Shown: piece after piece, positions 7,801-28,049 of the stretch
Layout of the letters: every line of letters begins with the position of its first letter
How positions within the stretch are numbered: the first letter of the stretch is position 1
Assembly: GCA_035626775.1 (NCBI GenBank)
Contig: DASPNA010000062.1
Location: forward strand, 3,480 to 67,479
Source: Thermoanaerobaculia bacterium
Lineage (GTDB): Bacteria > Acidobacteriota > Thermoanaerobaculia > Gp7-AA8
Length of the DNA: 64,000 nucleotides
Direction: 5' to 3'
The notes under the pieces: model-generated
The model's input: only the letters and a program-made list of their open reading frames with translations
What the model was told of the DNA's origin: nothing
The model's database searches: none
Made by a program: the position numbers and the translations under genes

Positions 7801-9562
7801 CGACGACCCGCAGGACGTCAACGTGCCCGCCGGCTCCACAGAGCTCATCGTGCAAAGCCTCTTCGTCCCCGGCGAGCCGGACCAGACGTTGTTCTTCAAC
7901 GCCACCGCCGATCGTCCGTGGCTCACCGTGCGGCCCGCCAGCGGCGTGCTCACGCCCAACGGCGTCACGCTCGAAGTCACCGCCGATCCGCGCAACCTGC
8001 CGAACGGTACGTTCACCGCAAGCGTCATCGTCACGTTCGACGAGGGCTCTGGCATTCGCACGAACGCGAGCACGAAGAAGACGTTCCCGATGGCCATCAA
8101 CCTCGTCACACCGGTTTCGCCCGTCCCCGATAAAGGCGCCACGTCGCAGTTCGCGATGATCATCCCTACCGTCGGTCACCTCGGCGGCATCAACTCGCAA
8201 TGGCAGTCCGACGTGCGCGTCACGAACGCCGGCTTCCTCCCCGCGCGCTATCGCCTCACGTTCACGCCCGCCGCCGGCACCGCGCACGGCGTGCAGCAGA
8301 CCATCATCACCGTCGACGCCGGCGCGACCACCGCGCTCGATGACATCATCAGCAGTTGGTTCGGCATCGGCGCGCTCGGCGAGAACGCCAGCGGCATGCT
8401 CGAGATCCTGCCGCTCGATGACGCCGCGGTCGCCGCCGCCAGCACCGTCGCGTCGAGCCGCACGTACAACGTCACCGCGAACGGCACGCTCGGGCAGTTC
8501 ATCCCCGCGATCCGCTACGGCGGCTTCATCGGCAAGGCTCTCGAGAACGCGCTGCCGCAGATCCTCAGCCTGCAGCAGATCGCCGAGACCGGCGCGTATC
8601 GGACGAACGTCGGCATCGCCGAAGGCTCGGGTGAAGCCGCGTCGGTGCTGATGCGCTTCTTCGACGGCGGCGGCGCGAAGCTGCTCGAGCTGCCGCTGGA
8701 ACTGGCGGGCGGCGAACAGCGGCAGATGAACGCGATCCTGGCGCAGCACGGTTTCTCCGTCGCCGACGGCCGCGTCGAAGTGGAAGTCCTCGGCGGCACC
8801 GGCAAGGTGACTGCTTACGCGTCGGTGGTCGACAACCTCACCAACGATCCACTCCTGGTCAGCGGCACGCTGCTCGCGCAGGACGGCACGACGCGCTGGG
8901 TGCTGCCCGGCGCGGCGAGCCTCGACACGGCCATCGCGCATTGGCGCACCGACATGCGCGTCTTCAACTACGGCGCCGCGCCGCAGCCTGCGACGCTCAC
9001 GTTCTTCCCCGCCGCCGGCGGTGCGCAGGCCAGCACGGAAGTGTTGCTCGAGCCGGGCGAAGTGCTGACGCTCGACAACATCGTGAAGTCGACGTTCGGA
9101 CGCGACAACGCGGGCGGCGTCGTGCACCTCGACACCGCGACGAATGCGAACCTCATCGTCACCGGCCGCACGTACAACGAGACCGCAGCCGGCACTTACG
9201 GCCAGTTCATCCCGGCCGTCACGAGCGCCGAAGCAACGGGAATCGGCGGGCGCACGCTGCACATCCTGCAGGTCGAGGACTCCGTGCGCTATCGCACCAA
9301 CCTCGGCCTCGCGGAAGTGACAGGGCAGCCGGTGACGGTGGAAGTGCAGGTGTGGCTGCCGGACTCGAAGGTGACGCCGACGGTGGAGGTCCCGCTGGCC
9401 GCAAACGAGTTCCGCCAGTTCGGCCTCCGCGACCTCGGCCTCGGCAGCGTCTACAACGCGCGCGTCACGGTGCGCGTGATCGAAGGGACGGGTCGCGTCA
9501 CGGCTTACGGTTCGGTGATCGATGAGCTGACGCAGGATCCGACGTATGTGCCCGCGCAGTAA
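1853..9562 (+). CDS. Giant secreted protein 1 (2569 aa): signal peptide, PATR/autotransporter-passenger-like beta-helix repeats, DUF11 repeats, FN3-like domains, shared C-terminal tandem module
   Basis: Long ORF with signal peptide MHARSLRILALLLFFATPLAADT. Roughly 25-35 aa G/N/T-rich repeats with xKTGxG...NNG...GTL pattern through about aa 1400. DUF11 signature TVTFTVTVTNNGPSTAAGVTLVDTL. FN3-like YELDEA/W motifs. C-terminal 480 aa homologous to ends of the other two giants. Ends DPTYVPAQ. Confidence 0.85.
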   Translation: MHARSLRILALLLFFATPLAADTFTLVASGGSWSNNTVWLQNGLPAVRYPGSLAGTVDIVNLTVPLYTVAVDVVLSEGVELHANCPSNTSTCVVDVGAAGLLRTSGGISTITDDAHLKLTGGTIEVRGALSLGVGSKFDWSSGTLTGVGATDIAYDSVDPAILTLVNGILDGHSLTVHGKAIYTGSFGINNGGQVDITTNGIFDIQTLGPITTNNPATSKIVNGGTFEKTGGAGGTNISVPLNNNGIVKAWFGTLVLSDGSHTNGTFDVASTHGLEIAGTFNGTCTIQGAGTTKIVGTPVIENGATLNVNGALSMLGGWLQGPAAGTGVANVSSVVTFDGGAWRRNLTVNMLTASTLDVTGVASVVLDDATVVADAGALVKINPGVSLAINTGSSITNNGTLRLTGDVTVTSDGVFSPFIVNNALLEKTAGAGIARIATKVDNNGTGTISVASGELALNGGGTSSGTINIPAATNQLVFESNTYTLAAGSLFNITDLGWFRVDGGTLSLSAPLTLKFVHLRSGTLRGSTLIINNGLKWNGGTILGPGTTQIASTASVDLANLTGFALLDQRTIENDGAVTYNAGLFGLRMSNGAIWNNRNGASFTITGDGAIESPSGVNAFNNLSGATVAKNGGASGTRFDVILTNAGTISSNSPNGTIIVNNGGSMTAGSLVVSNSANIHFFNGTFAISGGVITGSPGVVTVLNNGQLSITDSVVCAAAFSISNGGVLDVAPLKVFAIDDFFWSGGLIQGGGQVRVAVSGLVTNAAPTTLSGGTALTIDNTLDYDADAINHLTINDTAQLSLGPTAVMSLRLDGILAGASTATIVNQGTLKKTVGTGTSRIDVRINSSAGAVGVTTAGFLHLKTGGGTGSLAGTLIDTGTGRIQFDGDYLIGAGSSFIGTGTVQIVSGIVSITPNVTIENLLLDGGALSGSGVVAINGGKWTGGDMDGGGTTSVNAGKTFEIATGTTKKLRRSLINNGTLLFQNLPAALTMENGATLTNNSLTELQMNTNFFCTCTPSTSRFHNTATGTLRQFNAAGTSNFLTVFDNDGDVDVETGILNLMNGGTHTGSFGVDAVTFLQFSGPGDTFSSASSIGGAGAVGFAGTNSVFAGTYTLTGANAKTIVQGNVTFNSNVSTPALELRSGTLGGTANVVIAGGGPVSSWQGGTIQGSGALTIASGAVVDLNTSSAVILVSGRTITNNGTINYTASVNPLTLGGGASIVNALTLDVQTDTAIAIGAGGGSITNNGTFTKTTATGTTSIAPAFTNTNLVDLTSGIVDFGGGFTQSAGLTKLNGGNMGGSSVALNGGTLSGNGTITADVTNGATLSPGTSPGAITISGNYTQTNAGTLAIDLGGTTPATQYDQLNVTGTATLNGTLNVAFFGGYIPTGGETYDVLNFASRSGDFAVKTLPVFPAGGSIEANYFPTKLQLAAVVTQTDLAVSQTDSGPALHNDTVTFTVTVTNNGPSTAAGVTLVDTLSNATFISATSTVGTCSGTGPINCNIGGLAPTQSAVITITATANSVGTITNNASVSSSTFDPDNSNNNAPTASIIVSPKADLGVTITDAIDPANPLQNVLYSVNVVNNGPDSAASASIAVSITNGSITSASGAPFTCSGTGASATCTSASLAPGSYVITVAAQAPAQGTMTLSATASSSTTDVPTTNNTASETTTINSFVDLTITKSGLTNATAGSGIVYTITVKNTGPSDAANVVVDDPTPAGLSFTGNSGACFTTFPCSLGTLTAGQTKVITSQWNVEPDTQGTAITNVATVSTTTADTAPGNNTATATTTVDCTNTTPTNLQPANGATVAADGTLSWNGTGSSYTVFLGPAGSGCTTQFATTTSTSVTYSLTPGTTYEWRVRSHLGNCAVQTSSCITFTTAQQCIAPQAPLARVVAQTTTDKTYAVEWDLVPGATRYELDEATNAAFTNAQTFQVTGLSKSFKHDVTEPTAFYYRVRAFNDCGVEAGPYSLAIRAVIVPLPSGDDPQDVNVPAGSTELIVQSLFVPGEPDQTLFFNATADRPWLTVRPASGVLTPNGVTLEVTADPRNLPNGTFTASVIVTFDEGSGIRTNASTKKTFPMAINLVTPVSPVPDKGATSQFAMIIPTVGHLGGINSQWQSDVRVTNAGFLPARYRLTFTPAAGTAHGVQQTIITVDAGATTALDDIISSWFGIGALGENASGMLEILPLDDAAVAAASTVASSRTYNVTANGTLGQFIPAIRYGGFIGKALENALPQILSLQQIAETGAYRTNVGIAEGSGEAASVLMRFFDGGGAKLLELPLELAGGEQRQMNAILAQHGFSVADGRVEVEVLGGTGKVTAYASVVDNLTNDPLLVSGTLLAQDGTTRWVLPGAASLDTAIAHWRTDMRVFNYGAAPQPATLTFFPAAGGAQASTEVLLEPGEVLTLDNIVKSTFGRDNAGGVVHLDTATNANLIVTGRTYNETAAGTYGQFIPAVTSAEATGIGGRTLHILQVEDSVRYRTNLGLAEVTGQPVTVEVQVWLPDSKVTPTVEVPLAANEFRQFGLRDLGLGSVYNARVTVRVIEGTGRVTAYGSVIDELTQDPTYVPAQ

Positions 9563-9815: not shown

Positions 9816-12800
9816 ATGTCCGGTGTTGCTGGCTGTCGGCGGTTCTTGTTATGTGCAGTGATGTTCCTGGCTGGTGCCGCCTCCGGGCAGAGCGTCGATC
9901 TTCGCGTCACCAACCTCTTCGACAGCATCGATCCGATCACCCTCGGCACCGGCGACGTGGCCTACTCGGCCACGATCTTCAACGGCAGCGCTACCGCGGG
10001 CACGAATCCAGTCGTCACGTTCACGCTCCCCGCGGCCTCGACGTTCGTCTCCGCGAGCGCGAACCTGAGCGGCACCTGCAACGCGCCGAGCGGCGGCACG
10101 CTCACCTGCACCTGGGCCGGCAGTTTCGCCGCCAGCAACACGCGCACGGCAACCATCACCGTCACCCCGACTGCCGGCGGCAGCATGAGCGTTACCGCGA
10201 GCGTCACCGGGGATCAACCCGACCCGACGCCGTCCAACAACTCGCTCACTGAATCGACCACGGTCAACGCGCAGATCGATCTCAAGATCAGCAGCCTCTT
10301 CGACAGCATCGATCCCATCACGCTCGGCACCGGCAACGTCACCTACACCGCGCAGATGTTCAACGAGAGCACCTCGAAGGCCACGAATCCCTTCGTGACC
10401 ATCACGCTCCCGGCATCATCCACGTTCGTTTCCGCGACCGCGAACCTGAGCGGCACCTGCACCGCGCCGAGCGGCGGCGTGCTCACGTGCAACTGGACCG
10501 GCGACTTTCCCGCGAGCAACACCCGCACTGCCACGGTCACCGTCACTCCCACCGCGGGCGGCACGATGACGCTGACGGCAACCGCCGGCGCCGATCAATC
10601 CGATCCCGATCCGGCGGACAACACGGCGTCGCACAACACGGCCGTCAACGCGCAGATCGACCTCAAAGTCAGCAGCCTGTTCGACAGCATCGACCCGGTC
10701 ACGCTGGGCACCGGCGACGTTACCTACACCGCGCAGATCTTCAACGAGAGCAGCTCGAAGGCCACGAATCCGTTCGTGACCGTCACGCTCCCGGCGTCAT
10801 CGACCTTCGTCTCCGCAAGCGCAAATCTCAGCGGTACGTGCGGCGCGCCGAGCGGCGGCGTCCTCACGTGCAACTGGACCGGCGACTTCCCCGCGAGCAA
10901 CACCCGCACCGCCAACATCACCGTCAGTCCGACCGCGGGCGGCACGATGACGTTGTCGGTCACTGCCGGCGCCGATCAATCCGATCCCGATCCAGCGGAC
11001 AACACCGCGAGCCATAACACCACCGTCAACGCGCAGATCGATCTGAAGGTGAGCAGTCTCTTCGACAGCATCGATCCCGTCACCCTCGGCACCGGCGACG
11101 TCACCTACACCGCCACGGTCTTCAACGAGAGCAGTTCCAAGGCCACGAATCCGTTCGTGACCTTCACGCTCCCCGCGTCATCGACCTTTGTCTCCGCATC
11201 CGCGAACCTCAGCGGCACCTGCGGTGCGCCCAGCGGCGGGGTCCTCACGTGCAACTGGACCGGCGACCTGCCCGCGAGCAACACGCGCACCGCCACCGTC
11301 ACCGTCACACCCACAGCGGGCGGCACGATGACGCTGACGGCAACGGCCGGCGCCGATCAGTCCGATCCCGACCCAGGGGACAACACCGCGAGCCACAACA
11401 CCACCGTCAACGCGCAGATCGATCTGCGCGTCAGCAGCCTGTTCGACAGCATCGACCCGATCACGCTCGGCACCGGCAACGTCACCTACACCGCGCAGAT
11501 TTTCAACGCCGGGACCTCGAAGGCGACCAACACGTTCGTCACCATCACGCTCCCCGCGTCGTCGACGTTCGTGTCGGCGAGCGCAAACGTCAGCGGCACG
11601 TGCACCGCGCCGAGCGGTGGCGTGCTGACGTGCAATTGGGCCGGCGATCTCGCCGCGTCCAACACGCGCACCGCCACCATCACCGTCACCCCCACGGCCG
11701 GCGGCACGATCACGCTCACCGCGGTCGCGGGCGGCGATCAACCCGATCCGAACAACGCCGACAACACCGTCTCGCACAACACCACCGTCAACGATCAGAT
11801 CGATCTGCGCGTGAGCAGCCTCTTCGACAGCATCGACCCGATCACGCTCGGCACCGGCAACGTCACCTACACCGCGCAGATCTTCAACGCCAGTTCGTCG
11901 AAGGCCACGAACGCGTTCGTGACCATCACGCTGCCCCCGTCATCGACGTTCGTCTCTGCGAGTGCGAACGTCAGCGGCACGTGCACCGCGCCGAGCGGTG
12001 GTGTGCTCACCTGCAACTGGGCCGGCGATCTCGCCGCGTCCAACACGCGCACCGCCTCCATTACCATCACGCCCACCGCTGGCGGCACGATGACGTTGAC
12101 CGCGGTCGCCGGCGGCGATCAGCCCGATCCCAACACCGCAGACAATACGGTTTCGCACAACACCGCCGTCAACGATCAGATCGATCTGCGCGTCAGCAGT
12201 CTCTTCGACAGCATCGACCCGGTCACGCTCGGCACCGGCAACGTCACTTACACCGCGCAGATCTTCAACGCCAGTACGTCGAAGGCGACCAATGCGTTCG
12301 TCACCTTCACCCTCCCCGCTTCGTCGACGTTCGTGAGCTCGACCGCGAACGTCGGCGGCACCTGCACCGCGCCGAGCGGCGGCGTGCTCACGTGCACCTG
12401 GGCCGGCGATCTCGCTGCGTCCAATACCCGCACGGCCACGATCTCCGTCACTCCCACCGTTGGCGGCACCATGACCCTCACCGCGGTCGCCGGCGGCGAT
12501 CAGCCCGATCCCAACACCGCCGACAACACGGCCTCGCACAACACGACCGTGAACGCGCAGATCGACCTGCGCATCAGCAGTCTCTTCGACAGCATCGACC
12601 CCATCACCCTCGGCACCGGCAACGTCACCTACACCGCGCAGGTCTTCAACGCCAGCTCGTCGAAAGCGACCAACGCATTCGTCACCTTCACGCTCCCCGC
12701 TTCGTCGACGTTCGTCAGCTCGACCGCGAATGTCGGCGGCACCTGCACGGCGCCGAGCGGCGGCGTGATGACGTGCACCTGGGCCGGCGATCTCGCCGCG

Positions 12801-15800
12801 TCGAACACCCGCACGGCTACCGTCACCGTTACTCCGACCGGCGGCGGCACGATGACGTTGACCACCACCGCGGGCGGCGATCAGCCCGATCCGAACACCT
12901 CCGACAACACCGCGTCGCAGAGCACCACCGTCAACGCCACGCTCGACCTGCAGCTCTCGATCAGCGACAGCCCCGATCCGCGCATCGTCGGCGCCGGGAA
13001 CGTCACCTACACATTCAACCTCCTCAACGCCGGCTCATCGAAAGTTACCAATCCCGTGTTGACGTTCACCATGGCGCCGTCGACCACGTTCGTCTCCGGG
13101 ACCGCGAGCAGCGGCGGAACGTGCGGACATTCGGCCGGCACCGTCACCTGCAACTGGACGGGCGACTTCAACGCGTCGACCGGTCGCACCGCGACCGTCA
13201 TCGTCACGCCGACCGTAGTCGGACAGATCAGCGCCACCGGCACCGTCAATGCCGATCAAGGCGACCCCGCGCCCGCGAACAACACCGAGACCGAGACCAC
13301 GAACATCTATCCGGCCACGGCGCCGACGATCACCGGCTTCACGCCGATCAGCGGACCGGTCGGCACCGTCGTCACGATCAGCGGCTCGAGCTTCTTCTCG
13401 ACTTCGTCGGTCTCATTCACCGGCGCCGGTGCGACGTTCACCGTTGTGAACGACACCACGATCACCACCACCGTCCCCGTCGGCGCGGCGACCGGCAAGA
13501 TCACCGTGCTGAACACGATCGGCTCGACGCTGAGCGCGGCCAACTTCACGGTCACGCCCGCTCCCGATCTCACCATCAGCAAGACCGCGTCCGCCGCGAC
13601 GGTGCCCGTCAGCTCGCCGTACAACTACACGCTCGCGGTCAACAACGGCGGCGCCGGCAGCGCGAATGACGTGACGGTCACCGACACGCTCCCGCTGGGC
13701 GTCACGCTCACGACCGCCGCCGGCACCGGCTGGACCTGCAGCGGCACGACCACGGTAACGTGCACGATGGGCGCGCTCGCACCGGGCGCGGCGCCGTCGA
13801 TCACGTTGAACGTGACCGCGCCTGCGACCGGCACGACCGTCAACAACATCGCCAACGTCAGCACGACCACGCCCGAGACGAGCACCGGCAACAACTCCGG
13901 CAGCGTCGCAGTCGGCATCGTCGGCTGCCCGACCACACCGGTCGTCACCGCACCCGCCACCGTGTGCGCCAACTCCACCAATCACACCGCGTCGACGCCG
14001 CTCGTTCCCGGCGGCACGTACGCGTGGTCGATCACGAACGGCACGATCACCTCGTCGACCACCAGCAACATCATCACGTTCGACGCAAACTCGAGCGGAC
14101 AGGTGCAGCTCGACGTCGCTGTGTTCGTGAGCTCCTGCCCGTCGGCGTTGAACACCGCGTTCGTGAACATCTCCGTGCCCACCGCCACGATCACGCCGAG
14201 CGGCCCCACTACATTCTGCAGCGGCGGCGGCGTGATGCTCACGGCCAACGCCGGTTCTTCCTACCTCTGGTCCACTGGCGCGACCACGCAGTCGATCAAC
14301 GTCAATACCGCCGGCAGCTACACGGTCGCGGTGACAAATGCAGACGGCTGCACCACGACGTCCGCAGCGACGAACGTGAGCGTGCTGCCGCCGCCGACGG
14401 CCACGATCACGCCGAGCGGTCCAACCACCTTCTGCGATGGCGGCAGCGTCACGCTGAGCGCGCCCGCGGGCATGACCAACTATTCCTGGTCGAACGGCGC
14501 CACGTCGCAGTCGATCAACGTCACCGACAGCGGCACGTTCACCGTCACGATCACCAACCCCAGCGGCTGCAGCGCCACGTCCGCGCCCGTGAGCGTCACC
14601 GAGCTCGCGCCGCTGGTGGCCACCATCACGCCGAGCGGCCCCACCACCTTCTGCAGCGGTGGCAGCGTCACGCTCGACGCCGGCGCCGGCTTCACGTCGT
14701 ATCTCTGGTCGAACGGCGCCACGTCGCAGTCGATCAACGTCGCCGCGTCCGGCACGTTCACCGTCACCGTCACCGACGCCAACACCTGCAGCGCCACCTC
14801 GGCGCCGACTGTCGTCACGATGAATCCGAATCCGACCGTGACGGTCAGCGGCCCCTCGACTGCGTGCGGCAGCGCCGTGCTCGACGCCGGTCCCGGATTC
14901 GCGACGTACAACTGGTCCAACGGCGCGACCACGCAGACGACCACGGTCACGACCACCGGCGGCTACTTCGTCACTGTCACCGACGCCAACGGCTGCTCCG
15001 CGACCTCGTCGCCGAAGAGCGTCACCATCAACTCCGCGCCCGGCGTCAACATCGCCGGCCCGCTCAGTGCGTGCGACAGCGCGAACCTCGACGCCGGCGC
15101 CGGCTTCGTCTCGTACCTCTGGAACACCGGCGCAATCTCGCAGTCGATCAACGTCACCACCAGCGGCGTCTACACCGTCACCGTGACCGACGCGAACGGC
15201 TGCACCGGCACCGACACGCACACCATCACCATCGATGCGACGCCGGCCGCGACGATCACGCCGAGCGGACCGACCACGTTCTGCGCGGGCGGCAGCGTCA
15301 CGCTCACCTCCAGTCCGGCCGCGTCGTACTTGTGGTCGAACGGCGCCACGACGCAGTCGATCGTCGTCACCGCATCCGAAACGTTCACCGTCACCACGTC
15401 GAACGGCGCGTGCAGCGCGACGTCGGCTCCGACCGTCGTCACCGTTTCGCCTGGAGCAACCGTCGACATCACCGGTCCCGCGGCGACGTGCGCGGGCGCC
15501 GCGGTCACGCTCGATGCGGGCGCGAACTTCGCGTCGTATCTCTGGAGCACCGGCGCGACGACGCAGACCATCACCGTCACGCCGTCGACGCTTACGACCT
15601 ACACCGTCAACGTCACCAACGCCAGCGGCTGCAGCGCAAGCGACACGCACACCGTGAACGTCACCGCGAATCCGGCCGCCACCATCAACGCGCCCGCAAC
15701 CGTCTGCAGTCTCGCCACGAATGCCACCGCCTCGGTCGCACCGCAAACGGGCGCGACGTACGCGTGGACGATCGCGAACGGCACCATCACCTCCGCGAAC

Positions 15801-18800
15801 AACACGCCGTCGATCACCTTCACCGCCGGCGCCAGCGGCTCCGTCACCCTCGACGTCACCGTCACGAACGGATCGTGCGTCAGCACCGGCTCGTCCGTCA
15901 TCCCGATCGGCGCGCTCACCGTCAACATCACCGGCCCCGCCGATAGCTGCCCCGGCGACCCGTTCACGCTCAGCGTGCCCGCGGCATTCGCGAGCTATCT
16001 CTGGTCGAACGGCGCAACCACGCCGTCGATGACCGCCGCCGCACCCGGCACGTACAGCGTCACCGTGACCGACGCAACCGGCTGCACCGCGTCGGCGTCG
16101 CACACCGTGGCACCGCTCACCGCGCCGCTCGCGACGATCAGCGCGCCAGCTTCGGCGCCCGCCGATAGCGCCGGCCACATCGCAAGCGTGCCGCTGTTCG
16201 CGGGTGCGGCCACGTACGCGTGGTCGATCGCGAACGGCACGATCACCGGCGGCCAGGGCACGACCGTGATCACGTTCCAGACCGGCAGCAGCGGCACGAC
16301 GACGCTCGGAGTCGTGATCGTGGGCAACGGTTGCTCGTCGAGCGACAACGTTGCTGTCGCAATCACGGAAGCCGGTCCGGGCTCCGCCGATCTGTCCATC
16401 TCGAAGACCGCGCCGTCATCGGTGCAGGCCGGCGCGCCGTTCGCGTACACGCTGGTGGTGACCAACAACGGCCCCGACACGGCCGGCGACGTCACGATCG
16501 AAGACGTCCTGCCCGCCGGCGTCACGCTTTCCTCCATGAACGACAGCGTCTTCACGTGCATCCCCAGCGGCCTGCCGATCCACTGCACCGGCGGGCTCGC
16601 CGCCGGCTCGTCACGCATGATCACCTTCAACGTGCTCGCGCCGCCGACCACCGGCACGATCACGAACACCGCCACCATCGCCGGCGGTCCCGGCGATGAG
16701 AACGACGCGAACAACACGTCGTCCGCATCGACGAACATCGTCGCTGCGCCGCCAAGCTGCTCGACCGTGCCTCCGTCGCTCATCGCACCGGCGAACAACG
16801 CCACCGTCCCGTCGCCGGTGACGTTCACCTGGAACCCGGTCAGCGGCGCGACCGAATACGAGCTCTGGATCGAGTCGTCGCTGGCGGGCACCACCAACGC
16901 GACGTCGCTCACACTTCCGCTGCCGAGCGGTGCCGCCACGTGGCACGTCGTAGCGCGACTCGCGGAGAGCTGCACGCCGCTCGTTTCCGCGGAGCGCACG
17001 CTGTTCGTCGCCACCTCGAGCACATGCGACAACGGCCGCCCGCAACTCCTCGCGCCGACCGCGGGCTCGACGCAGACGTCGCCGGTCTCGTTCCAGTGGA
17101 CCTCCGTCGCGAACGCGATCGGCTATCGCCTCTGGATCGAATCGAACGGTACCGCCGCGCAGGACGTCGGCACCACTACCGGCACCACGCTGACCGGCAA
17201 CATCGAGCCGGGCTCCGCGATCGCGTATGTCGACGCGCTGTTCAGCGGCTGCGGTCCGACGCGCTCCGATGCGATCCCGTTCAACGTGCCAGCACCCGAT
17301 CCGTGCGCCGCGCGCGCGACTGCCACACCGATCTCGCCGAACAACGCGATCCTCAGCTCGTCGCTCGTCACGTTCCAGTGGCATGCGGCCGCCGGCAGCG
17401 CTGGCTATCGCGTATGGGCCGCGATCGACGGCGCCGCGCCGGTTGTCATCGGCACGACCGAAGGCACTTCGCTGCAGGCGTTCATCGAGGACGGCGACGT
17501 GCTCTGGTTCGTCGAGTCGCTGTACGAAGGTTGCCCGTCCACGGAATCGCAACGCTTCCACTTCACCATCCCACCGGCACAGCAATGCGGCACGAGCCCG
17601 CTGCCGAATCTCGCGCAGCCGGTCAACGACTCGACCACGCAGGATGGTGAGATCGACTTCCGCTGGACAAACGTCCCGAACGCGATCGCGTACGAGCTGT
17701 GGCTCGGCTTCGCGGACGCCGCTCCCGCACTCGTCACCACGACCAGCGCGACCGAGCACACACACATCGTGGCGCCCGGCACGTACGACTGGTTCGTGCG
17801 CGCGATCATGAATCGCTGCCCGTCGCGCGATTCACAGACGCGCACGTTCACGTTCACCCCGCCGCCCGCCTGCACCGCGAATCAGCGTCCGACAGCAATC
17901 GAGCCGCTGCCCGGCGCGACGCATACGCCGGCAGTGGCGTTCTCATGGGGCGCCGTCCCGAACGCGACGCATTACGAGCTCTTCATCGACGGCGCCGCCG
18001 TCACGAACACCAGCACTACGCAAGCGACGCGGACGCTGCTCACCGGACCGCACCGCTGGTTCGTGCGCGCGCACTTTGCGAACTGCGCACCGCTCGATTC
18101 CGCCGCGCAGCCGATCAACGTCGTGCAGCCGCCGCAAGCGTGTGCGCCATTGCGCGCGCCCGCGATCTCCGCGCCCGGACAGATCTCCAGCGGCGTCGAA
18201 CTGCGCGTGCAATGGTCGCCGTCGCCCGGTGCGACTGCGTATCAGGTGCAGTTCGCGTCGACGAGCGATTTCCTGGACGCTGAAGTGATCGTCACGAACG
18301 CAACGCAGCACTCGCTGCTGCGCGTGAACGACGGCACGACGCCACTCTCGATCTTCGCGCGCGTGCGCGCCATCGACGCGCGTTGCAAGCCGACGCCATC
18401 GGTCTCGCCGTTCGGGCCAACGTCCGTCCTGCACATCCTGCCGGCATCGGCCGAAGCATCCGTGCCGCTGACGAACAATGACGTGGCGACCTTCACCGTG
18501 CCGATCGGCGCCGAGTTCGCCGGCCAGTCGTTCACCGCGACGGTCAAAGAAACGTGGCTCACCGTCACGCCGTCGTCCGGCATCGTCCCCGCCGGCGGCA
18601 CCACGCTCACCGCCCAGGCGAACACCAGCGTCCTCGGCGTCGGCACGCACCTCGGCGCCGTCTTCCTGACGTTCGAAAGCGCGGGCAGCATTCGCACGAA
18701 CGCCACCACGCTCAAAGTGCCGACGATCTCGATCAGCAAAGTCACGCCGGTCACGCCGTCGCCGAAGTCGACGCCGCCGCCCGACGCGCTGATCATCCCC

Positions 18801-20225
18801 GCGGTCGCGCACGCGAGCGGCATCAACTCGCAGTTCCAGTCCGACGTGCGCGTGACGAACAGCTCCGCGGAGCTGCTGCAGTATCAACTCACGTTCACGC
18901 CGACCGGCACCGACGGCCTCGCCTCCGCGCGGCAGACGACGTTCTCGATCGATCCCGGCCGCACCATCGCGCTCGACGACATCCTGCGCACGATGTTCGG
19001 CACCGGCGGCGACAGCGTCACCGGCACGCTCGAAGTGCGGCCCATGACCGAAAACGACTCGACGACGACGTCGGATTCTTCGCTCTTCGGCGGAGCGCTC
19101 GCGGATCTCGTCACCTTCGCGTCGTCGCGCACGTTCAACGTCACCTCGAACGGCACGTTCGGCCAATACATCCCGGCCGTGCCGTACGCGAATTTCGTCG
19201 GCATGAGTCCGACGGTGCTGTCGCTCCAGCAGATCGCACAATCCGATCGCTACCGCACCAACCTCGGCATCGTCGAAGCCTCCGGCAGTCCGGCCGAGCT
19301 GCTCGTCAAAGTATTCGGCAGCGACGGCCAGTTCCTCAAGGAGTTCCCGGTCAACCTCGCGGGCGGTGAGCACACACAGCTCAACGGCTTCATCTCCACG
19401 CAGGGCATCGGCACGTTGAGCGACGGCCGCGTCGAGATCTCCGTGATCGGCGGCACGGGCAAGGTCACGGCGTACGCGTCGGTGCTCGACAACGCCACGA
19501 ACGATCCGCTGCTCGTCACGCCGGTCGCGCTGAACGATGCGGGCGACACCAAGTGGGTCGTGCCCGGCGTCGCCGATCTCAACAACGGCTTCGCGAACTG
19601 GCAGACCGACATGCGCCTCTTCAACGCCGGCTCGACCGACGTCGACGCGCTGCTCACGTTCCACTCGCAGGGCGGCGGCACGCCGAAGACACAGTCTGTG
19701 ACCATTCCCGCGGGCCAGGTGCGGCAGTTCGACAAAGCGCTGGCCAGCGTCTTCGGCTCGGCCGGCGATGGCGGCGCGATTCACATCTCCACGCCGAGCG
19801 CCACCCGCCTCGTCGCCACGGCGCGCACGTACAACGAGACCAGCGGCGGCACGTATGGCCAGTTCATCTCCGGCATCACGCCGAACGAAGCGACCGGTAC
19901 CGACTCGCGCCCGCTGCAGATCCTGCAGGTCGAGGAGTCGAACCGCTTCCGCTCGAACATCGGCCTCGCCGAAGTCACCGGCAAACCGGTGACGCTCGAG
20001 CTGTCGATCATTCCGCCGGACGGGAAGTTCATCGCCGTGACCGAGGTCGAGTTGCAGGCGAACGAGTTCCGCCAGATCAATTCGCTGCTGAGGACTGTCG
20101 GCCTCGCCGACACGTTCAACGCGCGAGTGAGCGTGCGCGCGATCGAAGGCGAAGGCCGCGTGACCGCGTACGCGAGCGTCATCGACATGCTCACCAACGA
20201 CCCGACCTACGTGCCGGCGCAGTAA
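9816..20225 (+). CDS. Giant secreted protein 2 (about 3470 aa): signal peptide, 9 tandem DUF11 repeats, IPT/TIG, Cys-containing Ig-like repeats, about 10 FN3-like domains, shared C-terminal tandem module
   Basis: ORF 9756..20225. Preferred start at Met21 (9816: MSGVAGCRRFLLCAVMFLAGAASGQ signal peptide, GGGAGA RBS upstream). IPT motif PTITGFTPISGPVGTVVTISGSSF. Repeats YLWSNGATTQSINV...C...C. FN3-like units with EYELWIESS / GYRLWIES / HYELFIDGA. Ends DPTYVPAQ. Confidence 0.85.
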   Translation: MSGVAGCRRFLLCAVMFLAGAASGQSVDLRVTNLFDSIDPITLGTGDVAYSATIFNGSATAGTNPVVTFTLPAASTFVSASANLSGTCNAPSGGTLTCTWAGSFAASNTRTATITVTPTAGGSMSVTASVTGDQPDPTPSNNSLTESTTVNAQIDLKISSLFDSIDPITLGTGNVTYTAQMFNESTSKATNPFVTITLPASSTFVSATANLSGTCTAPSGGVLTCNWTGDFPASNTRTATVTVTPTAGGTMTLTATAGADQSDPDPADNTASHNTAVNAQIDLKVSSLFDSIDPVTLGTGDVTYTAQIFNESSSKATNPFVTVTLPASSTFVSASANLSGTCGAPSGGVLTCNWTGDFPASNTRTANITVSPTAGGTMTLSVTAGADQSDPDPADNTASHNTTVNAQIDLKVSSLFDSIDPVTLGTGDVTYTATVFNESSSKATNPFVTFTLPASSTFVSASANLSGTCGAPSGGVLTCNWTGDLPASNTRTATVTVTPTAGGTMTLTATAGADQSDPDPGDNTASHNTTVNAQIDLRVSSLFDSIDPITLGTGNVTYTAQIFNAGTSKATNTFVTITLPASSTFVSASANVSGTCTAPSGGVLTCNWAGDLAASNTRTATITVTPTAGGTITLTAVAGGDQPDPNNADNTVSHNTTVNDQIDLRVSSLFDSIDPITLGTGNVTYTAQIFNASSSKATNAFVTITLPPSSTFVSASANVSGTCTAPSGGVLTCNWAGDLAASNTRTASITITPTAGGTMTLTAVAGGDQPDPNTADNTVSHNTAVNDQIDLRVSSLFDSIDPVTLGTGNVTYTAQIFNASTSKATNAFVTFTLPASSTFVSSTANVGGTCTAPSGGVLTCTWAGDLAASNTRTATISVTPTVGGTMTLTAVAGGDQPDPNTADNTASHNTTVNAQIDLRISSLFDSIDPITLGTGNVTYTAQVFNASSSKATNAFVTFTLPASSTFVSSTANVGGTCTAPSGGVMTCTWAGDLAASNTRTATVTVTPTGGGTMTLTTTAGGDQPDPNTSDNTASQSTTVNATLDLQLSISDSPDPRIVGAGNVTYTFNLLNAGSSKVTNPVLTFTMAPSTTFVSGTASSGGTCGHSAGTVTCNWTGDFNASTGRTATVIVTPTVVGQISATGTVNADQGDPAPANNTETETTNIYPATAPTITGFTPISGPVGTVVTISGSSFFSTSSVSFTGAGATFTVVNDTTITTTVPVGAATGKITVLNTIGSTLSAANFTVTPAPDLTISKTASAATVPVSSPYNYTLAVNNGGAGSANDVTVTDTLPLGVTLTTAAGTGWTCSGTTTVTCTMGALAPGAAPSITLNVTAPATGTTVNNIANVSTTTPETSTGNNSGSVAVGIVGCPTTPVVTAPATVCANSTNHTASTPLVPGGTYAWSITNGTITSSTTSNIITFDANSSGQVQLDVAVFVSSCPSALNTAFVNISVPTATITPSGPTTFCSGGGVMLTANAGSSYLWSTGATTQSINVNTAGSYTVAVTNADGCTTTSAATNVSVLPPPTATITPSGPTTFCDGGSVTLSAPAGMTNYSWSNGATSQSINVTDSGTFTVTITNPSGCSATSAPVSVTELAPLVATITPSGPTTFCSGGSVTLDAGAGFTSYLWSNGATSQSINVAASGTFTVTVTDANTCSATSAPTVVTMNPNPTVTVSGPSTACGSAVLDAGPGFATYNWSNGATTQTTTVTTTGGYFVTVTDANGCSATSSPKSVTINSAPGVNIAGPLSACDSANLDAGAGFVSYLWNTGAISQSINVTTSGVYTVTVTDANGCTGTDTHTITIDATPAATITPSGPTTFCAGGSVTLTSSPAASYLWSNGATTQSIVVTASETFTVTTSNGACSATSAPTVVTVSPGATVDITGPAATCAGAAVTLDAGANFASYLWSTGATTQTITVTPSTLTTYTVNVTNASGCSASDTHTVNVTANPAATINAPATVCSLATNATASVAPQTGATYAWTIANGTITSANNTPSITFTAGASGSVTLDVTVTNGSCVSTGSSVIPIGALTVNITGPADSCPGDPFTLSVPAAFASYLWSNGATTPSMTAAAPGTYSVTVTDATGCTASASHTVAPLTAPLATISAPASAPADSAGHIASVPLFAGAATYAWSIANGTITGGQGTTVITFQTGSSGTTTLGVVIVGNGCSSSDNVAVAITEAGPGSADLSISKTAPSSVQAGAPFAYTLVVTNNGPDTAGDVTIEDVLPAGVTLSSMNDSVFTCIPSGLPIHCTGGLAAGSSRMITFNVLAPPTTGTITNTATIAGGPGDENDANNTSSASTNIVAAPPSCSTVPPSLIAPANNATVPSPVTFTWNPVSGATEYELWIESSLAGTTNATSLTLPLPSGAATWHVVARLAESCTPLVSAERTLFVATSSTCDNGRPQLLAPTAGSTQTSPVSFQWTSVANAIGYRLWIESNGTAAQDVGTTTGTTLTGNIEPGSAIAYVDALFSGCGPTRSDAIPFNVPAPDPCAARATATPISPNNAILSSSLVTFQWHAAAGSAGYRVWAAIDGAAPVVIGTTEGTSLQAFIEDGDVLWFVESLYEGCPSTESQRFHFTIPPAQQCGTSPLPNLAQPVNDSTTQDGEIDFRWTNVPNAIAYELWLGFADAAPALVTTTSATEHTHIVAPGTYDWFVRAIMNRCPSRDSQTRTFTFTPPPACTANQRPTAIEPLPGATHTPAVAFSWGAVPNATHYELFIDGAAVTNTSTTQATRTLLTGPHRWFVRAHFANCAPLDSAAQPINVVQPPQACAPLRAPAISAPGQISSGVELRVQWSPSPGATAYQVQFASTSDFLDAEVIVTNATQHSLLRVNDGTTPLSIFARVRAIDARCKPTPSVSPFGPTSVLHILPASAEASVPLTNNDVATFTVPIGAEFAGQSFTATVKETWLTVTPSSGIVPAGGTTLTAQANTSVLGVGTHLGAVFLTFESAGSIRTNATTLKVPTISISKVTPVTPSPKSTPPPDALIIPAVAHASGINSQFQSDVRVTNSSAELLQYQLTFTPTGTDGLASARQTTFSIDPGRTIALDDILRTMFGTGGDSVTGTLEVRPMTENDSTTTSDSSLFGGALADLVTFASSRTFNVTSNGTFGQYIPAVPYANFVGMSPTVLSLQQIAQSDRYRTNLGIVEASGSPAELLVKVFGSDGQFLKEFPVNLAGGEHTQLNGFISTQGIGTLSDGRVEISVIGGTGKVTAYASVLDNATNDPLLVTPVALNDAGDTKWVVPGVADLNNGFANWQTDMRLFNAGSTDVDALLTFHSQGGGTPKTQSVTIPAGQVRQFDKALASVFGSAGDGGAIHISTPSATRLVATARTYNETSGGTYGQFISGITPNEATGTDSRPLQILQVEESNRFRSNIGLAEVTGKPVTLELSIIPPDGKFIAVTEVELQANEFRQINSLLRTVGLADTFNARVSVRAIEGEGRVTAYASVIDMLTNDPTYVPAQ
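9894..13320 (+). repeat. Tandem array of 9 x 381-bp (127-aa) DUF11-type repeats inside giant gene 2; 8 near-identical copies and 1 divergent
   Basis: Protein units IDL[KR][VI]SSLFDSIDP[IV]TLGTG[DN]VTYTAQIFN...NTASHNTTVNAQ repeat head to tail. Antisense shadow ORFs recur at exactly 381-bp spacing (10343, 10724, 11105, 11486, 11867, 12248, 12629). Confidence 0.9.
14180..16100 (+). repeat. Array of about 8-9 tandem 78-82-aa Ig-like repeats with conserved Cys pair and Y[LN]WS[NT]GA[TI][ST]QSI motif inside giant gene 2
   Basis: Repeated ATITPSGPTTFC.GGSVTL.A..G...YLWSNGATSQSINV...GT[FY]TVTVTDANGCSATSAP..VT read directly from ORF translation. Confidence 0.65.
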
Positions 20226-22942: not shown

Positions 22943-22961
22943 CGTTCAAAATCCTCCTGTG

Positions 22962-23555: not shown

Positions 23556-23627
23556 GGTAACGCAAAGCGCTTTGTTCGGGACATCGCGTACAATAACTGT
23601 CCCAGGTTCGTCGGGTCCGGAGGATTC
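23556..23627. promoter_or_regulatory. 72-bp divergent promoter/operator region between membrane-protein/regulator operon and giant gene 3
   Basis: Perfect 12-bp palindrome CAAAGCGCTTTG (23563-23574). Second inverted repeat GGGACA-N14-TGTCCC (23578-23603) enclosing TACAAT (23589-23594). Confidence 0.45.
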
Positions 23628-26600
23628 ATGCGTCACGTAGTGTCTCTTGCAGTGGTGTTGTGTCTGGCCGTCGGGTCGATTTCCGCGGCCACATTCGAGA
23701 CCGTCACGGATGCCGCTCTCGTCGAGCGCTCCGAACTGGTCGTGGCCGGACGCGTGCTCGATGCCGCTTCGAGGCAGCTCGAGAACGGCTCGATCGTCAC
23801 CGACTACCGCCTCGCGGTCGACGACGTGCTGAAGGGCGCAGGCGCCGCTTCGATCGTCACGATCACGGAGTTCGGCGGCACGGCCGCGAGCGGCCTGATG
23901 CTGATCATCCCCGGCTCCGCGCGCTACACGCCCGGCAGCCGCGTGGTCGCATTCCTGAACGCGCGCAACGACGGCACGTACTTCACGTCGCACATGGCTC
24001 TCGGCCACTTCAAGTTCGAAGCGCGCCGCGACTTCGAGGTGCTGACGCGCGATGCGGATGGCGTCGAGCTCGAGAACGAAGCGCAGGCGCTGCGTCCGCG
24101 CACGGCCGCCGCGTTCGTGCGGTACGTTCGCGACGCGGCGAGCGGCATCGCGGTCGAGGCCTACGCGCCGAGCGTCGAGCCGGTAGGCGCAGATGACCCG
24201 CGCAAGACGCCGAAAGTCGACGCCGGTGCGGATTACGCGCTGAAGAACGGTTCTACGCCGCTCCGCTGGGAAGGCTGCGAAGCAGACTGCGTCATCGGTT
24301 ACTTCTGGAGCGGCGATCAAGGCGGCGTCGTCAACGACGCGGGCAGCATCGAAGCGGCGATGGACGCCTGGAACAGCCATGGCGACTCGTTCGTCAACCT
24401 CGGCCTCGGCGGTACGTCGTTGGCCACGAACCTCACCGTCTTCGATAACGAGAACACGATTCTCATCAACAACACCTCGTCGCCAGACTTCGGCCTCTGC
24501 AACGGCACGATCGCGTGCGGCGGTGTCTGGGGCAACACCAGCACGACGCACGTCTTCAAAGGCACCACCTATCTCTCCGTGCTCAACGGCGACATGCTCG
24601 TGCGCCCCGGCACCTACTCGAGCACGCAGTTCGAATCGATCGTCGCGCACGAGCTCGGACACACGCTCAGCCTGCGTCACTCGAACAGCGGAACCCCGTC
24701 CAGCACCAATGCGCTGATGAATTCCTCGCCGCCGCTCAGCGGCGCCGTGTTGCGCCAGTGGGACATGGACGCGATGGCGGAGCTCTACGGCGAAGGCCTC
24801 GCGTGCGCTCCGCCGACGAACCTCATCACCACCGGCGCCGGCACGATTTTCAGCGGCCAGACCAGAACGCTGACCGTCAGCGCCAGCGGCACCGCTCCGT
24901 TCAGCTATCAGTGGTATCGCGGCAACTCCGGCGACGACGACAATCCGGTCGGCACGAACTCCAGCCAGTTCACCACGCCGCCGCTCACCGAGACCACCTC
25001 GTATTGGGTGAAAGTCAGCGGCTGCACACCCGCGGTCAGCGCGAACAGCAACACGGTCACCGTCACCGTCGACGAGTGCCCGGAGCCGGGCATCACCTCG
25101 CAGCCGCAGAACAAGAACATCGCCACCAACACCTCCACGACGCTCAGCGTCGCGGCCCAGGGCGGCGCGCCGTTCAGCTATCAGTGGTACCGCGGCGAAC
25201 AGGGCGACATCACCAACCCCGTCGGCACCAACTCCCCGAACTTCAACACCGGCAACCTGACGCAGACGACCTCGTACTGGGTAAAAGTCACGAACGTGTG
25301 CGGCCTGCACGCGATCAGCCAAACTGCCACGGTCACCATCCAGGCGTGCCCGCGGCCGGCATTCACGACGCAGCCGCTCAGCCAGAACATCGCGTCGAAC
25401 ACCACCGCCACGCTGACCGTCGCGACGACGAGCAACACCACCGTTGCCTATCAGTGGTTCCGCGGACTCGTTGGCGATACGTCGAATCCGGTCGGCATCA
25501 ACTCGACGAGCTTCACCACGCCGGCGCTCACGCAGACCACGTCGTACTGGGTGCGCGCGACGAACAACTGCGGCCCGACCAATAGCGCACAGGCCACGAT
25601 CACCGTCGGTCCCACGTGCAATACGCTTTCGATCGCCTCCATCCCCTCCACCGTCAACGCCACCCTCGGTGACGGCCTCACGATCAACGTCACCCCCTTC
25701 GGCACCGCGCCGTTCACGTATCAGTGGTTCGCCGGCGAATCGGCGGACGATGCGAATCCGGTCGCGGGCGCCACGAGCTCATCGCTGCCGCTGGCGCCGT
25801 TCACCGCCACCGGCACGTTCCGCTACTGGGTTCGCGTCGGCGACGCCTGCGGCAACACGCTGAACAGCCCGACCGTCGTCATCAACGTGGCATGCGGATC
25901 GCCGACCACGCCGATCATCTCGGCGCCGTCGATCTCGCACTTCAGCGCCGGCTATGACGTGCAGTGGCTCGCGAACCTCGCACAGACGTCGAACTTCGAG
26001 CTGCAGGAAGCGCGCGACGCCGCGTTCACCGTCGGTGTGAAGACGTTCCTCGTCGACGAGTTGAGCGAGCACATCGATCCGCATCTCGAGATCACGACCG
26101 ACACGCGCTTCTACTATCGCGTCCGCGGCATCGGCAACTGCACGCAGCAGCCGACACCGTATTCGAAGACCACCAGCACCGTCATCACCGCGCCCGAGCC
26201 GGCGAACAGCAGCGAGTTCTCGATCAGCGTGCCGCAGAGCACGACACAGACGTTCACGCAGCCGTACCTCGTGCCCGGCTTCGGGGAGATCGCGACCGCG
26301 GGCGACACCTTCTCGATCGTCACCGACGCGGCGTGGCTGACCGTCTTCCCGGCGTCCGGCGCGCTGTCCGCGGGCGGCACGACCGTGCAGTTCACGATCA
26401 ATCCGTCGCTCCTCGAGATCGGCTCGACCACCGGCTCCATCGTCGTGACGCGCACGCAGGGCACCGCGGCACGAGGCGGCATCGTCACGAACGCGACCAG
26501 CAAATTGACGCTGCCGATTACGATCAGCAAAGTCACGCCGGTCACGCCTTCACCGCGCGACGGAAATGCGCCGCTCGGCACGCTCGTCGTTCCCGCCATC

Positions 26601-28049
26601 GCGCATGCGGCCGGCATCGGCACGCGCTTCCAGTCGGACGTCCGCATCGTCAACGCGTCGGGTGAGCCGGTCTCCTACGAGCTGTCGTTCACGCCGTCGC
26701 TCACGAACGGCACCGAGACCGGCAAGCAGTTGCCGCTGACGATTGACGCGAACGGCACGGTTGGCCTCGACGACGTCGTGAAGGCATGGTTCGGCGCCGG
26801 TCTGCTCAACGAAGGCGGACTGGGCACGCTCGAGATCCGGCCGCTCGACGGCGCGAATCCACAGGCCACGTTCGCCTCCAGCCGCACGTACGCGATCGAC
26901 ACCACCAGCATCACCGCGAATGCCGACTGCACCATCCTCCGCTGCACGCTCGGGCAGTTCATCCCGGCGCTCGGACTCGAGAAGTTCGTCAGCAACATCG
27001 GCAGCGATCCGCTCGCCACGATCAGCATGCAGCAGCTCTCGAACAGCCTCGACTCGAGCGGCTTCCGCACGAACCTCGGCTTCGTCGAAGGCTCGGGCAA
27101 CGCCGCGAAGATGCTGCTCACGCTGCGCGACGGCGCGAACAACATCCTCCGGCAGGTCGAGCGCGACATCGCGCCGTACGGCCACGAGCAGACTTCGCTT
27201 TCCGCGGTGTTCGGCGCGCAGGCGCTGAGCGACGGCCGCGTCGAAGTGCAGGTCATCTCGCCGGGCGGCAAGGTCTCCGCGTACGCGTCCGTCGTCGACA
27301 ACTCCACGAGCGATCCGCTGCTCGTCTTCCCGGTGCAGGCCGCGCGCATCTCGGCGCAGCATTACGTGCTGCCGGGCGTGGCCGAGCTCAACAACGGTCC
27401 GTCGTCGAACTTCCACACCGACATCCGCGTCTACAACGCCGGCGCCACGGCGGTGACCGCGACCCTGAACTACTTCCCGCAGGCCGGCGACAGCACGCCC
27501 CGTCCGCCGACGGTGGAATTGCTGATGCAGCCGGGCGAAGTCAAGGCGATCAACAACATCCTGCCGGAGCTGTGGCAGCTCAGCGGCACCGGCGGCGCGC
27601 TCGCGATCGATGCACCGAGCGCGGCTTCGCTCGTCGTCACCGGACGTACGTACAGCCGCGACAGCGACGGCGGCACCTACGGCCAGTTCATCCCCGGCGT
27701 CACCGCCGCCGACGGCGTCGGCGTCGGCGAGCGCGCCCTCGAAGTGCTGCAGCTCGAGCAGTCGGATCAGTACCGCACCAACCTCGGTCTCGTCGAGGTC
27801 ACGGGCAATCCCGTCAACGTCGAGATCGTCGCTCAGACCGCCGGCAAGATCACCGCGCGTACGGAGTTGGGGTTGAGCGGCAACGAGTTCCGCCAGCTCG
27901 GCCTCATCTTCAGGCAGCTCGGCTTCACCGATGCGGCGTACACAGGCCGCGTGAGCGTGAAGGTCCTCAGCGGCAACGGCAGGATCGCCGCGTACGGCTC
28001 GGTCGTCGACAACAAGACCATCGATCCGACGTACGTGCCCGCGCAGTAG
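23628..28049 (+). CDS. Giant secreted protein 3 (1473 aa): signal peptide, metzincin-like zinc protease domain, 5 Ig-like repeats, FN3-like domain, shared C-terminal tandem module
   Basis: Start ATG 23628 in frame with ORF 22602..28049 (MRHVVSLAVVLCLAVGSISAATFE). HELGHTLSLRHS plus NALMNSS Met-turn-like motif. Five repeats ...APFSYQWYRG..GD..NPVG.NS..F.T..LT.TTSYWV.V.N.CG. Ends DPTYVPAQ. Confidence 0.85.
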   Translation: MRHVVSLAVVLCLAVGSISAATFETVTDAALVERSELVVAGRVLDAASRQLENGSIVTDYRLAVDDVLKGAGAASIVTITEFGGTAASGLMLIIPGSARYTPGSRVVAFLNARNDGTYFTSHMALGHFKFEARRDFEVLTRDADGVELENEAQALRPRTAAAFVRYVRDAASGIAVEAYAPSVEPVGADDPRKTPKVDAGADYALKNGSTPLRWEGCEADCVIGYFWSGDQGGVVNDAGSIEAAMDAWNSHGDSFVNLGLGGTSLATNLTVFDNENTILINNTSSPDFGLCNGTIACGGVWGNTSTTHVFKGTTYLSVLNGDMLVRPGTYSSTQFESIVAHELGHTLSLRHSNSGTPSSTNALMNSSPPLSGAVLRQWDMDAMAELYGEGLACAPPTNLITTGAGTIFSGQTRTLTVSASGTAPFSYQWYRGNSGDDDNPVGTNSSQFTTPPLTETTSYWVKVSGCTPAVSANSNTVTVTVDECPEPGITSQPQNKNIATNTSTTLSVAAQGGAPFSYQWYRGEQGDITNPVGTNSPNFNTGNLTQTTSYWVKVTNVCGLHAISQTATVTIQACPRPAFTTQPLSQNIASNTTATLTVATTSNTTVAYQWFRGLVGDTSNPVGINSTSFTTPALTQTTSYWVRATNNCGPTNSAQATITVGPTCNTLSIASIPSTVNATLGDGLTINVTPFGTAPFTYQWFAGESADDANPVAGATSSSLPLAPFTATGTFRYWVRVGDACGNTLNSPTVVINVACGSPTTPIISAPSISHFSAGYDVQWLANLAQTSNFELQEARDAAFTVGVKTFLVDELSEHIDPHLEITTDTRFYYRVRGIGNCTQQPTPYSKTTSTVITAPEPANSSEFSISVPQSTTQTFTQPYLVPGFGEIATAGDTFSIVTDAAWLTVFPASGALSAGGTTVQFTINPSLLEIGSTTGSIVVTRTQGTAARGGIVTNATSKLTLPITISKVTPVTPSPRDGNAPLGTLVVPAIAHAAGIGTRFQSDVRIVNASGEPVSYELSFTPSLTNGTETGKQLPLTIDANGTVGLDDVVKAWFGAGLLNEGGLGTLEIRPLDGANPQATFASSRTYAIDTTSITANADCTILRCTLGQFIPALGLEKFVSNIGSDPLATISMQQLSNSLDSSGFRTNLGFVEGSGNAAKMLLTLRDGANNILRQVERDIAPYGHEQTSLSAVFGAQALSDGRVEVQVISPGGKVSAYASVVDNSTSDPLLVFPVQAARISAQHYVLPGVAELNNGPSSNFHTDIRVYNAGATAVTATLNYFPQAGDSTPRPPTVELLMQPGEVKAINNILPELWQLSGTGGALAIDAPSAASLVVTGRTYSRDSDGGTYGQFIPGVTAADGVGVGERALEVLQLEQSDQYRTNLGLVEVTGNPVNVEIVAQTAGKITARTELGLSGNEFRQLGLIFRQLGFTDAAYTGRVSVKVLSGNGRIAAYGSVVDNKTIDPTYVPAQ

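Follow-up and report, generated by a model that had tools for sequence, protein, structure and literature searches.

The ASRAH superfamily, delineated from ASRT, the transducer of Anabaena sensory rhodopsin, and TM1070 (PDB 2ii7 and 1nc7; Pfam ASRT/DUF1362), consists of eight-stranded sandwiches in which strand 1 opens with a conserved Trp, and an ungapped strand 2, ending with a near-invariant Asn, lines a cleft that the dimer interface in the TM1070 tetramer helps to form (De Souza, Iyer and Aravind, Biol Direct 2009, PMC2739507). That these domains bind sugar is predicted from gene context, founding members included, and the families described are stand-alone cytoplasmic proteins, amidase fusions of Chloroflexi and actinobacterial lipoproteins; the secreted members are always dyads or tetrads, and for the extracellular versions an association with peptidoglycan, or with the glycans of capsule and gum, was suggested (PMC2739507). 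Is this fold also to be found where the giant exported proteins of a very different lineage end? The subject here is a stretch of 64,000 nucleotides from a Thermoanaerobaculia bacterium (assembly GCA_035626775.1, contig DASPNA010000062.1, forward strand positions 3,480 to 67,479; hereafter the window), in which three very large proteins, A, B and C, with unlike N-terminal parts (the ‘passengers’), end with the same C-terminal module, a tetrad of sandwiches. With the domains that directly precede it the tetrad forms a cassette, and to the reading that this cassette is a glycan-binding anchor we give about even chances.

That the three proteins share a C-terminal module, that DPTYVPAQ followed by the stop codon is their common end, and that the module is a tandem duplication had been read from the translations in the original prediction, and all three points are borne out. 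The last ~480 amino acids (aa) of A, B and C align over their full length with 46–53% pairwise identity; copy 1 of protein B matches its copy 2 with 30% identity over 243 columns (BLASTP E 2e-36); and a hidden Markov model (HMM) of the six copies, each ~235 aa, scores 290–343 bits on every one of them (336 and 320 bits in A, 290 and 315 in C) and found nothing beyond the six in the six-frame translation of the window. On these alignment, BLASTP and HMM results the shared duplicated module is confirmed, far beyond chance, and the motifs pointed out earlier, SDVRVxN, SSRTYN..GT.GQFIPA, YRTNLG..E and GKVTAYASV.DN.T.DP, are present in the alignments. As for the module starts then proposed, 18723 is in frame, and 8095 and 26510 are each one base out of it; the in-frame tetrads are given in Table 1. 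The extent of ~480 aa was too short, as BLASTP homology, at 39–43% identity, reaches ~730–780 aa from the C-terminus. The extra ~270–300 residues comprise an FN3-like domain, a BACON-like domain (PF19190 and PF13004 being the families considered) and, immediately before the tetrad, a conserved Pro-rich linker, ...VTPVxPxxK.... With BACON_2, whose gathering cutoff is 25 bits, protein B scores above it (27.9), and A (22.9) and C (20.7) below; fn3 in the upstream part of protein A, at 22.1 bits, is slightly under its own cutoff. In 139 of 144 family representatives the FN3/BACON region directly precedes the tetrad. Conserved cysteines stand on either side of the FN3-like domain, C...P before it and YYRVRA..C after it (7229–7500, 17871–18150, 25770–25900), a pattern that points to a disulfide and, with it, to a location outside the cytoplasm.

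Each copy is in turn composite. Compared profile to profile (hhalign), its a and b halves match locally with a probability of 95.8% (E 8e-9) and globally, over 110 columns, with one of 93% (E 4.6e-8). With two homologous halves per copy and two copies, the module is therefore a tetrad, a1-b1-a2-b2, of eight-stranded sandwiches of ~111–133 aa (about 115) each. What then of the terminus, from whose identity in the three proteins a special function had been inferred? The end of b2, ...TNDPTYVPAQ, aligns with ...TNDPLLVTPV of b1 and with ...GGTYGQFIPAV of the a subdomains, and the end of the open reading frame (ORF) coincides with the end of the fold, ...PTYVPA being the last modelled strand. In the model DPTYVPAQ is thus the eighth and last β-strand of b2 and not a separate signal; because it is homologous to the ends of the other subdomains, its conservation needs no sorting-signal explanation, and a separate terminal sorting peptide is ruled out. 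Between strands 6 and 7 of a1, and not of a2, is a Ser/Thr-rich loop of variable length (19020–19100 in protein B, and at the corresponding position in homologues), which might serve as a flexible lid or carry glycosylation.

AlphaFold2, given an alignment of 89 sequences, models the 474-aa tetrad of protein B as all-beta, with a mean pLDDT (predicted local distance difference test) of 92.4 and a pTM (predicted template modelling score) of 0.91, disorder being confined to residues 88–95 in the a1 loop (pLDDT <50). This pTM indicates that the four sandwiches would pack as one rigid body. In a Foldseek search of PDB with the tetrad as query, TM1070 (1nc7) is matched with a probability of 1.0 and a TM-score, normalised to TM1070, of 0.74–0.76, and the topology of its eight-stranded β-sandwich is that of the modelled subdomains; ASRT (2ii7) was not listed there, and no match extended over the whole module. 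By its modelled structure the building block belongs to the ASRAH superfamily. The most conserved motifs are of nine residues, [WF]Q[ST]D[VM]R[VL]xN for the a subdomains and [YF]R[TS]N[LI]G[LI]xE for the b subdomains, which by their sequence pattern can be equated with ASRAH strand 2. In the a subdomains D15, N20 and D270 are invariant and N275 nearly so; in the b subdomains N154 and E159 are invariant and E391 nearly so. In a2, 23 residues on from [KR]-W-V-V-P-G comes the Asn that ends W-Q-T-D-M-R-L-F-N (in general form W-x-[ST]-D-x-R-x-x-N), and a1 has Ile or Leu at the Trp position. Against all PDB sequences at E ≤10, three HMMER profiles (one of the tandem module, one of a single copy, one of the b subdomain) gave chance matches only, missing 1nc7 and 2ii7, and Pfam ASRT had no match on the module at E up to 1.

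The claim that the module is uncatalogued stands, no Pfam-A or NCBIfam model reaching its threshold on it, and it is undescribed in the literature found on DUF5719, secretion in Thermoanaerobaculia, T9SS (the type IX secretion system) in Acidobacteriota, and ASRAH. The family that recurs below threshold is DUF5719 (PF18986), profile positions ~100–250 of which match the a-type half. On window sequences it scores 19.5 bits (E 5.7e-4, on protein C) and 16.5, under a gathering threshold of 26.2 bits; it matches 5 of 28 single copies, the best with E 4.4e-5, and a precomputed PF18986 match accompanies 14 of the 120 homologues listed. DUF5719 may be the actinobacterial lipoprotein family of ASRAH dyads. 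The earlier exclusion of PEP-CTERM, LPXTG-like signals, a terminal β-barrel and the C-terminal domain (CTD) of T9SS cargo is upheld. The end of the module, ...SVIDxxTxDPTYVPAQ, is a modelled β-strand with pLDDT >90 and has neither the hydrophobic helix nor the basic tail of PEP-CTERM or LPXTG, and NCBIfam sorting-signal models have no match on the module. An autotransporter or other outer-membrane β-barrel is discarded, the model consisting of four soluble sandwiches and the terminal residue of the homologues being almost always Gln, and the N-terminal Sec signal peptides rule out a type I secretion signal. T9SS CTDs (TIGR04183/PF18962, and TIGR04131/CHU_C PF13585) give neither an HMM nor a fold match, and none is among the top matches of a structure search with b2 alone.

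How widespread is the module? A word-indexed search gave 381 homologues covering the whole tetrad, of which those with names are all annotated as ‘hypothetical protein’ and come from soil or sediment metagenome bins assigned to Thermoanaerobaculia or Acidobacteriota. An HMM search of 1.84 billion cluster representatives (50% identity) gave 8,327 at E ≤1e-3 and 2,301 at E ≤1e-30; at least 557 matches are confirmed in GTDB species representatives. The best 150 of the 8,327 have two matched stretches each (three in 3 cases), which end no more than three residues from the C-terminus, and these proteins reach 5,870 aa. The best 79 loci, 1.27 Mb in all, come from 60 genomes, all of them metagenome-assembled genomes of Thermoanaerobaculia or Acidobacteriota, with up to four module genes per genome in what is a partial sample; exactly two a-b copies, always C-terminal, are present in 101 of their 102 module proteins. 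Recurrence of a C-terminal module on unrelated N-terminal architectures, as had been proposed, is seen both in the 79 loci and in the best 150 clusters. The passengers range from DUF11 arrays, Ig_7/Ig_3, a metzincin-like region and GH85_C-like segments to parts in which no domain is recognised. Tails like DPTYVPAQ exist in other proteins too: among 89 aligned homologues the ending is exact in 47, and the final Gln is there in 86. By a crude heuristic at least 87 of 122 long representatives have a Sec-like N-terminal signal. Between orthologues the identity is 61–79% in the tetrad, 54–76% in the FN3/BACON region and 41–67% in the passenger. There is even a protein of 746 aa (P0085) that is only signal peptide and cassette, and such cassette-only proteins fit a self-sufficient binding unit. 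One homologue (P0037, in locus L024, CAVTGG010000010.1) has lost the DPTYVPAQ ending and has instead an unrelated ~130-aa tail with a PF08818 match, probably due to a frameshift or to an assembly or gene-call fusion.

The reading to which we give about even chances takes the ~730-aa cassette of each protein, an FN3-like and a BACON-like domain followed by the compact tetrad of ASRAH-fold sandwiches, as a glycan-binding anchoring or targeting unit whose ligand would most plausibly be a polymer of the producer’s own envelope or matrix. The tetrad would act as a lectin-like pseudo-tetramer that binds glycan non-covalently, most likely lipopolysaccharide O-chain, capsule or exopolysaccharide and less likely peptidoglycan, and the cassette would so keep diverse passengers on the cell surface or within the matrix, in the manner of surface-layer homology (SLH) and other cell-wall-binding modules. 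In favour of this reading are the ASRAH fold, with its predicted sugar binding and the occurrence of its secreted members as dyads or tetrads, the confident packing of the four homologous sandwiches, the conserved motifs equated with strand 2, the BACON-like neighbour, the repeated sub-threshold DUF5719 matches, a constant two-copy module in terminal position, the diversity of the passengers, the Sec signals, the cassette-only proteins and the tetrad being the best-conserved part. Several points weigh on the other side. Sugar binding is itself only predicted for the superfamily, the link to which is structural with no sequence-profile match; a strictly C-terminal position is what one would expect of sorting domains more than of lectins; in the loci examined the module genes have no glycan-synthesis genes linked to them; and the route of such large proteins across the outer membrane is left unexplained. 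Of the two roles that had been proposed for the module, attachment or secretion, the fold favours a putative attachment by glycan binding, like that of SLH domains, over a putative signal like the T9SS CTD.

Could the cassette, or the tetrad within it, be instead the recognition and attachment domain of a lineage-specific outer-membrane sorting pathway, comparable to T9SS CTDs, which machinery encoded elsewhere would recognise and possibly cleave before the passenger is coupled to the surface? We consider this unlikely, and yet the least improbable of the alternatives. It would make sense of the strict C-terminal position and of the exactness of termination, though for the conserved terminus the last strand of the fold is explanation enough, and it would make sense of cargo proteins that number in the thousands, have passengers unrelated to one another and occur as several paralogues in a genome, as well as of the conserved Pro-rich linker directly upstream of the tetrad and of the module being the best-conserved part of orthologues. 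The Ig_7 (‘CHU_C associated’) repeats of protein C elsewhere precede the T9SS type B CTD; however, T9SS CTDs lack HMM or fold similarity to the module, no known sorting domain comes near its size of ~470 aa (~730 aa with the rest of the cassette), and its fold family points to ligand binding. Genes dispersed without linked machinery are usual for T9SS or PEP-CTERM cargo, but no candidate machinery is present in the 1.27 Mb of related loci, which are not whole genomes, and cassette-only proteins would be signals without cargo. In its most specific form, with the whole FN3-BACON-ASRAH-tetrad cassette as the cargo tag of a sorting and attachment system peculiar to Acidobacteriota, dedicated outer-membrane machinery encoded elsewhere and possible processing, the proposal seems to us quite improbable.

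An environmental ligand is next to be weighed. Were the tetrad a carbohydrate-binding module for plant, fungal or microbial polysaccharide, steering enzymes or adhesins to food particles or surfaces, the adjoining BACON-like domain, the soil or sediment origin of all the named matches and the GH85_C-like segments in some family members would be in keeping with it. However, the passengers seen are for the most part not glycoside hydrolases but adhesin-like repeats and a protease; substrate-targeting carbohydrate-binding modules vary in number and position, whereas here architecture and position are invariant in thousands of proteins; and the high conservation among paralogues suggests a single constant ligand. 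We hold this ligand to be unlikely too, behind a general sorting role and ahead of the specific cargo-tag proposal. Very improbable, in our estimation, is a cassette that serves protein–protein assembly, as of fibres or a lattice, or that is a C-terminal folding nucleus, in either case with no glycan ligand. TM1070 tetramers do form through the same fold, but with four sandwiches in one chain the tetramer interface is probably satisfied intramolecularly. The confident rigid packing of the four (pTM 0.91) and the existence of cassette-only proteins would suit assembly; against it speak the polar residues (D, R, N, E, Q, S, T and Y) that are conserved on what would correspond to the cleft-lining strand of TM1070, and there is no specific sign of oligomers.

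In the window, whose G+C content is ~65%, three long plus-strand ORFs have high third-position G+C: 1853–9562, 9756/9816–20225 and 22602/23628–28049. The mechanical ORF of protein B begins upstream, at GTG 9756. That of protein C, 22602–28049, runs over two real minus-strand genes, and for this reason, and because an independent gene call on the source contig (ENA ERZ27252492, k141_709987, 70.6 kb) has the same 1473-aa product, its start is taken as 23628, in agreement with the original prediction. The long antisense or out-of-frame ORFs between 1865 and 28328, such as 7019–9262, 13413–16178 and 17943–20258, all minus, are shadow ORFs and not genes, being the usual artefact of coding sequence with high G+C. 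All three proteins begin with what reads as a Sec-type signal peptide. Of the labels given to the passengers, DUF11 arrays, Ig_7/Ig_3 and metzincin are reproduced with Pfam, the last by a weak match; ‘PATR beta-helix’, for protein A, is not reproduced with Pfam or NCBIfam, neither of which has a family matching its residues 1 to ~1400 (window 1853–6000). The best explanation of A, B and C is that they are Sec-exported, very large multidomain proteins of the surface or the extracellular space, A and B being adhesin-like with DUF11 repeats and C a metzincin-like protease.

Table 1. Positions in the window of the three giant proteins, the parts of their C-terminal cassettes and the genes between B and C
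Feature	Position	Strand	Description
Protein A	1853..9562	+	2569 aa; Sec-type signal peptide, ~1400 aa without Pfam match, DUF11 repeats, shared C-terminal cassette; from ORF list, translation, Pfam DUF11 (E 1.6e-47), NCBIfam TIGR01451
Protein A, FN3-like + BACON-like + Pro-rich linker	7229..8155	+	BLASTP homology to B and C starts here
Protein A, tetrad	8156..9559	+	a1 8156-8518, b1 8519-8863, a2 8864-9226, b2 9227-9559
Protein B	9816..20225	+	3469 aa from ATG 9816; signal peptide, at least 11 DUF11 repeats (E 2.6e-141), shared cassette
Protein B, FN3-like + BACON-like part	17871..18788	+	BLASTP
Protein B, tetrad	18789..20222	+	a1 18789-19187, b1 19188-19520, a2 19521-19883, b2 19884-20222
TIG/FN3 protein	20265-22490	-	741 aa, signal peptide, TIG + FN3 domains; between B and C
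Winged-helix regulator	22583-22942	-	HTH_34, E 1e-26; with the membrane protein, between the TIG/FN3 protein and C; divergent from protein C
Polytopic membrane protein	22965-23540	-	~190 aa, no Pfam family; divergent from protein C
Protein C	23628..28049	+	1473 aa; signal peptide, metzincin-like HExxH region, Ig_3/Ig_7 repeats, shared cassette
Protein C, FN3-like + BACON-like part	25770..26582	+	BLASTP, alignment
Protein C, tetrad	26583..28046	+	a1 26583-26978, b1 26979-27329, a2 27330-27707, b2 27708-28046

When the neighbours of module genes in the 79 loci are clustered, no secretion, outer-membrane or anchoring machinery is found among them, and what recurs is lineage synteny: the HTH_34 regulator with its membrane protein, pgl-opcA-zwf, and thiolase. 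The regulator and membrane protein pair adjoins module genes in 27 of the 79 loci, which could be plain synteny or could reflect a dedicated regulator of these surface proteins. Two genes that are cassette-only, or nearly so, have contexts unrelated to each other. The TIG/FN3 protein between B and C is without a tetrad, and its N-terminal ~470 aa are without a Pfam match. The remainder of the window has housekeeping genes, enzymes of cyclic di-GMP metabolism and LigD, and no secretion machinery. Directly upstream of protein A, and divergent from it, is a VIT-domain protein (1–1668, minus), truncated at the left edge of the window. A MASE1-GGDEF-EAL protein (40888–43047, plus) and a GAF-GGDEF protein (50394–51548, minus) are 13–22 kb downstream of the giant genes; cyclic di-GMP often controls large adhesins. 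A SpoIIE-type phosphatase is at 43142–44338 (minus), and an ATP-dependent DNA ligase of LigD type that also has a primase-polymerase domain, of the kind involved in non-homologous end-joining, at 54389–56200 (minus).

Thermoanaerobaculia are abundant and almost uncultured bacteria of soil and sediment, and to our knowledge nothing has been learnt of how they build their cell surface. What is new here is a module with no Pfam or NCBIfam model; the fold of its building block and secreted ASRAH tetrads were already known. It provides a fourth, lineage-specific and by far the largest context for a poorly studied fold, and the cassette, found on a great number of the largest proteins of these bacteria, is an annotation handle for thousands of giant proteins that are now ‘hypothetical’. 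It also offers a testable surface-anchoring hypothesis for a diderm phylum, the Acidobacteriota, in which we know of no description of such a mechanism. Were the tetrad to prove a sorting tag and not a lectin, it would be a new secretion signal, beside T9SS CTDs and the exosortase and sortase signals.

How does the cassette stand, finally, among the systems that it recalls? It is closest to the ASRAH proteins: the module is a tetrad of two dyads, secreted ASRAH members being dyads or tetrads, its a-type subdomains, with positions equated by sequence pattern, may open strand 1 with an aromatic residue (Trp in a2, where a1 has Ile or Leu) and close a gap-free nine-residue strand 2 with an invariant Asn, and the segment equated with strand 2 bears family-specific conserved residues. 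It differs in that b-type subdomains have a Glu (E159, E391) in place of the hallmark Asn, and in its context, since it follows FN3-like and BACON-like domains and forms the very C-terminal end of multidomain giants of Thermoanaerobaculia. DUF5719, an actinobacterial family of unknown function, differs from it in taxa and architecture. Like T9SS CTDs, the cassette puts a β-sandwich at the far C-terminal end of secreted proteins that are numerous, large and diverse, and protein C has Ig_7 repeats upstream; however, the T9SS domain is one sandwich of ~80–100 aa and the module is four in ~470 aa, and we know of no T9SS in Acidobacteriota. SLH triplets have a helical fold, and their ligands and function are demonstrated, whereas those of the cassette are what we infer; yet they too are binding modules in repeated form, placed at one end of many secreted proteins per genome that have nothing else in common, and the non-covalent anchoring to an envelope glycan that they exemplify is what is proposed for the cassette.

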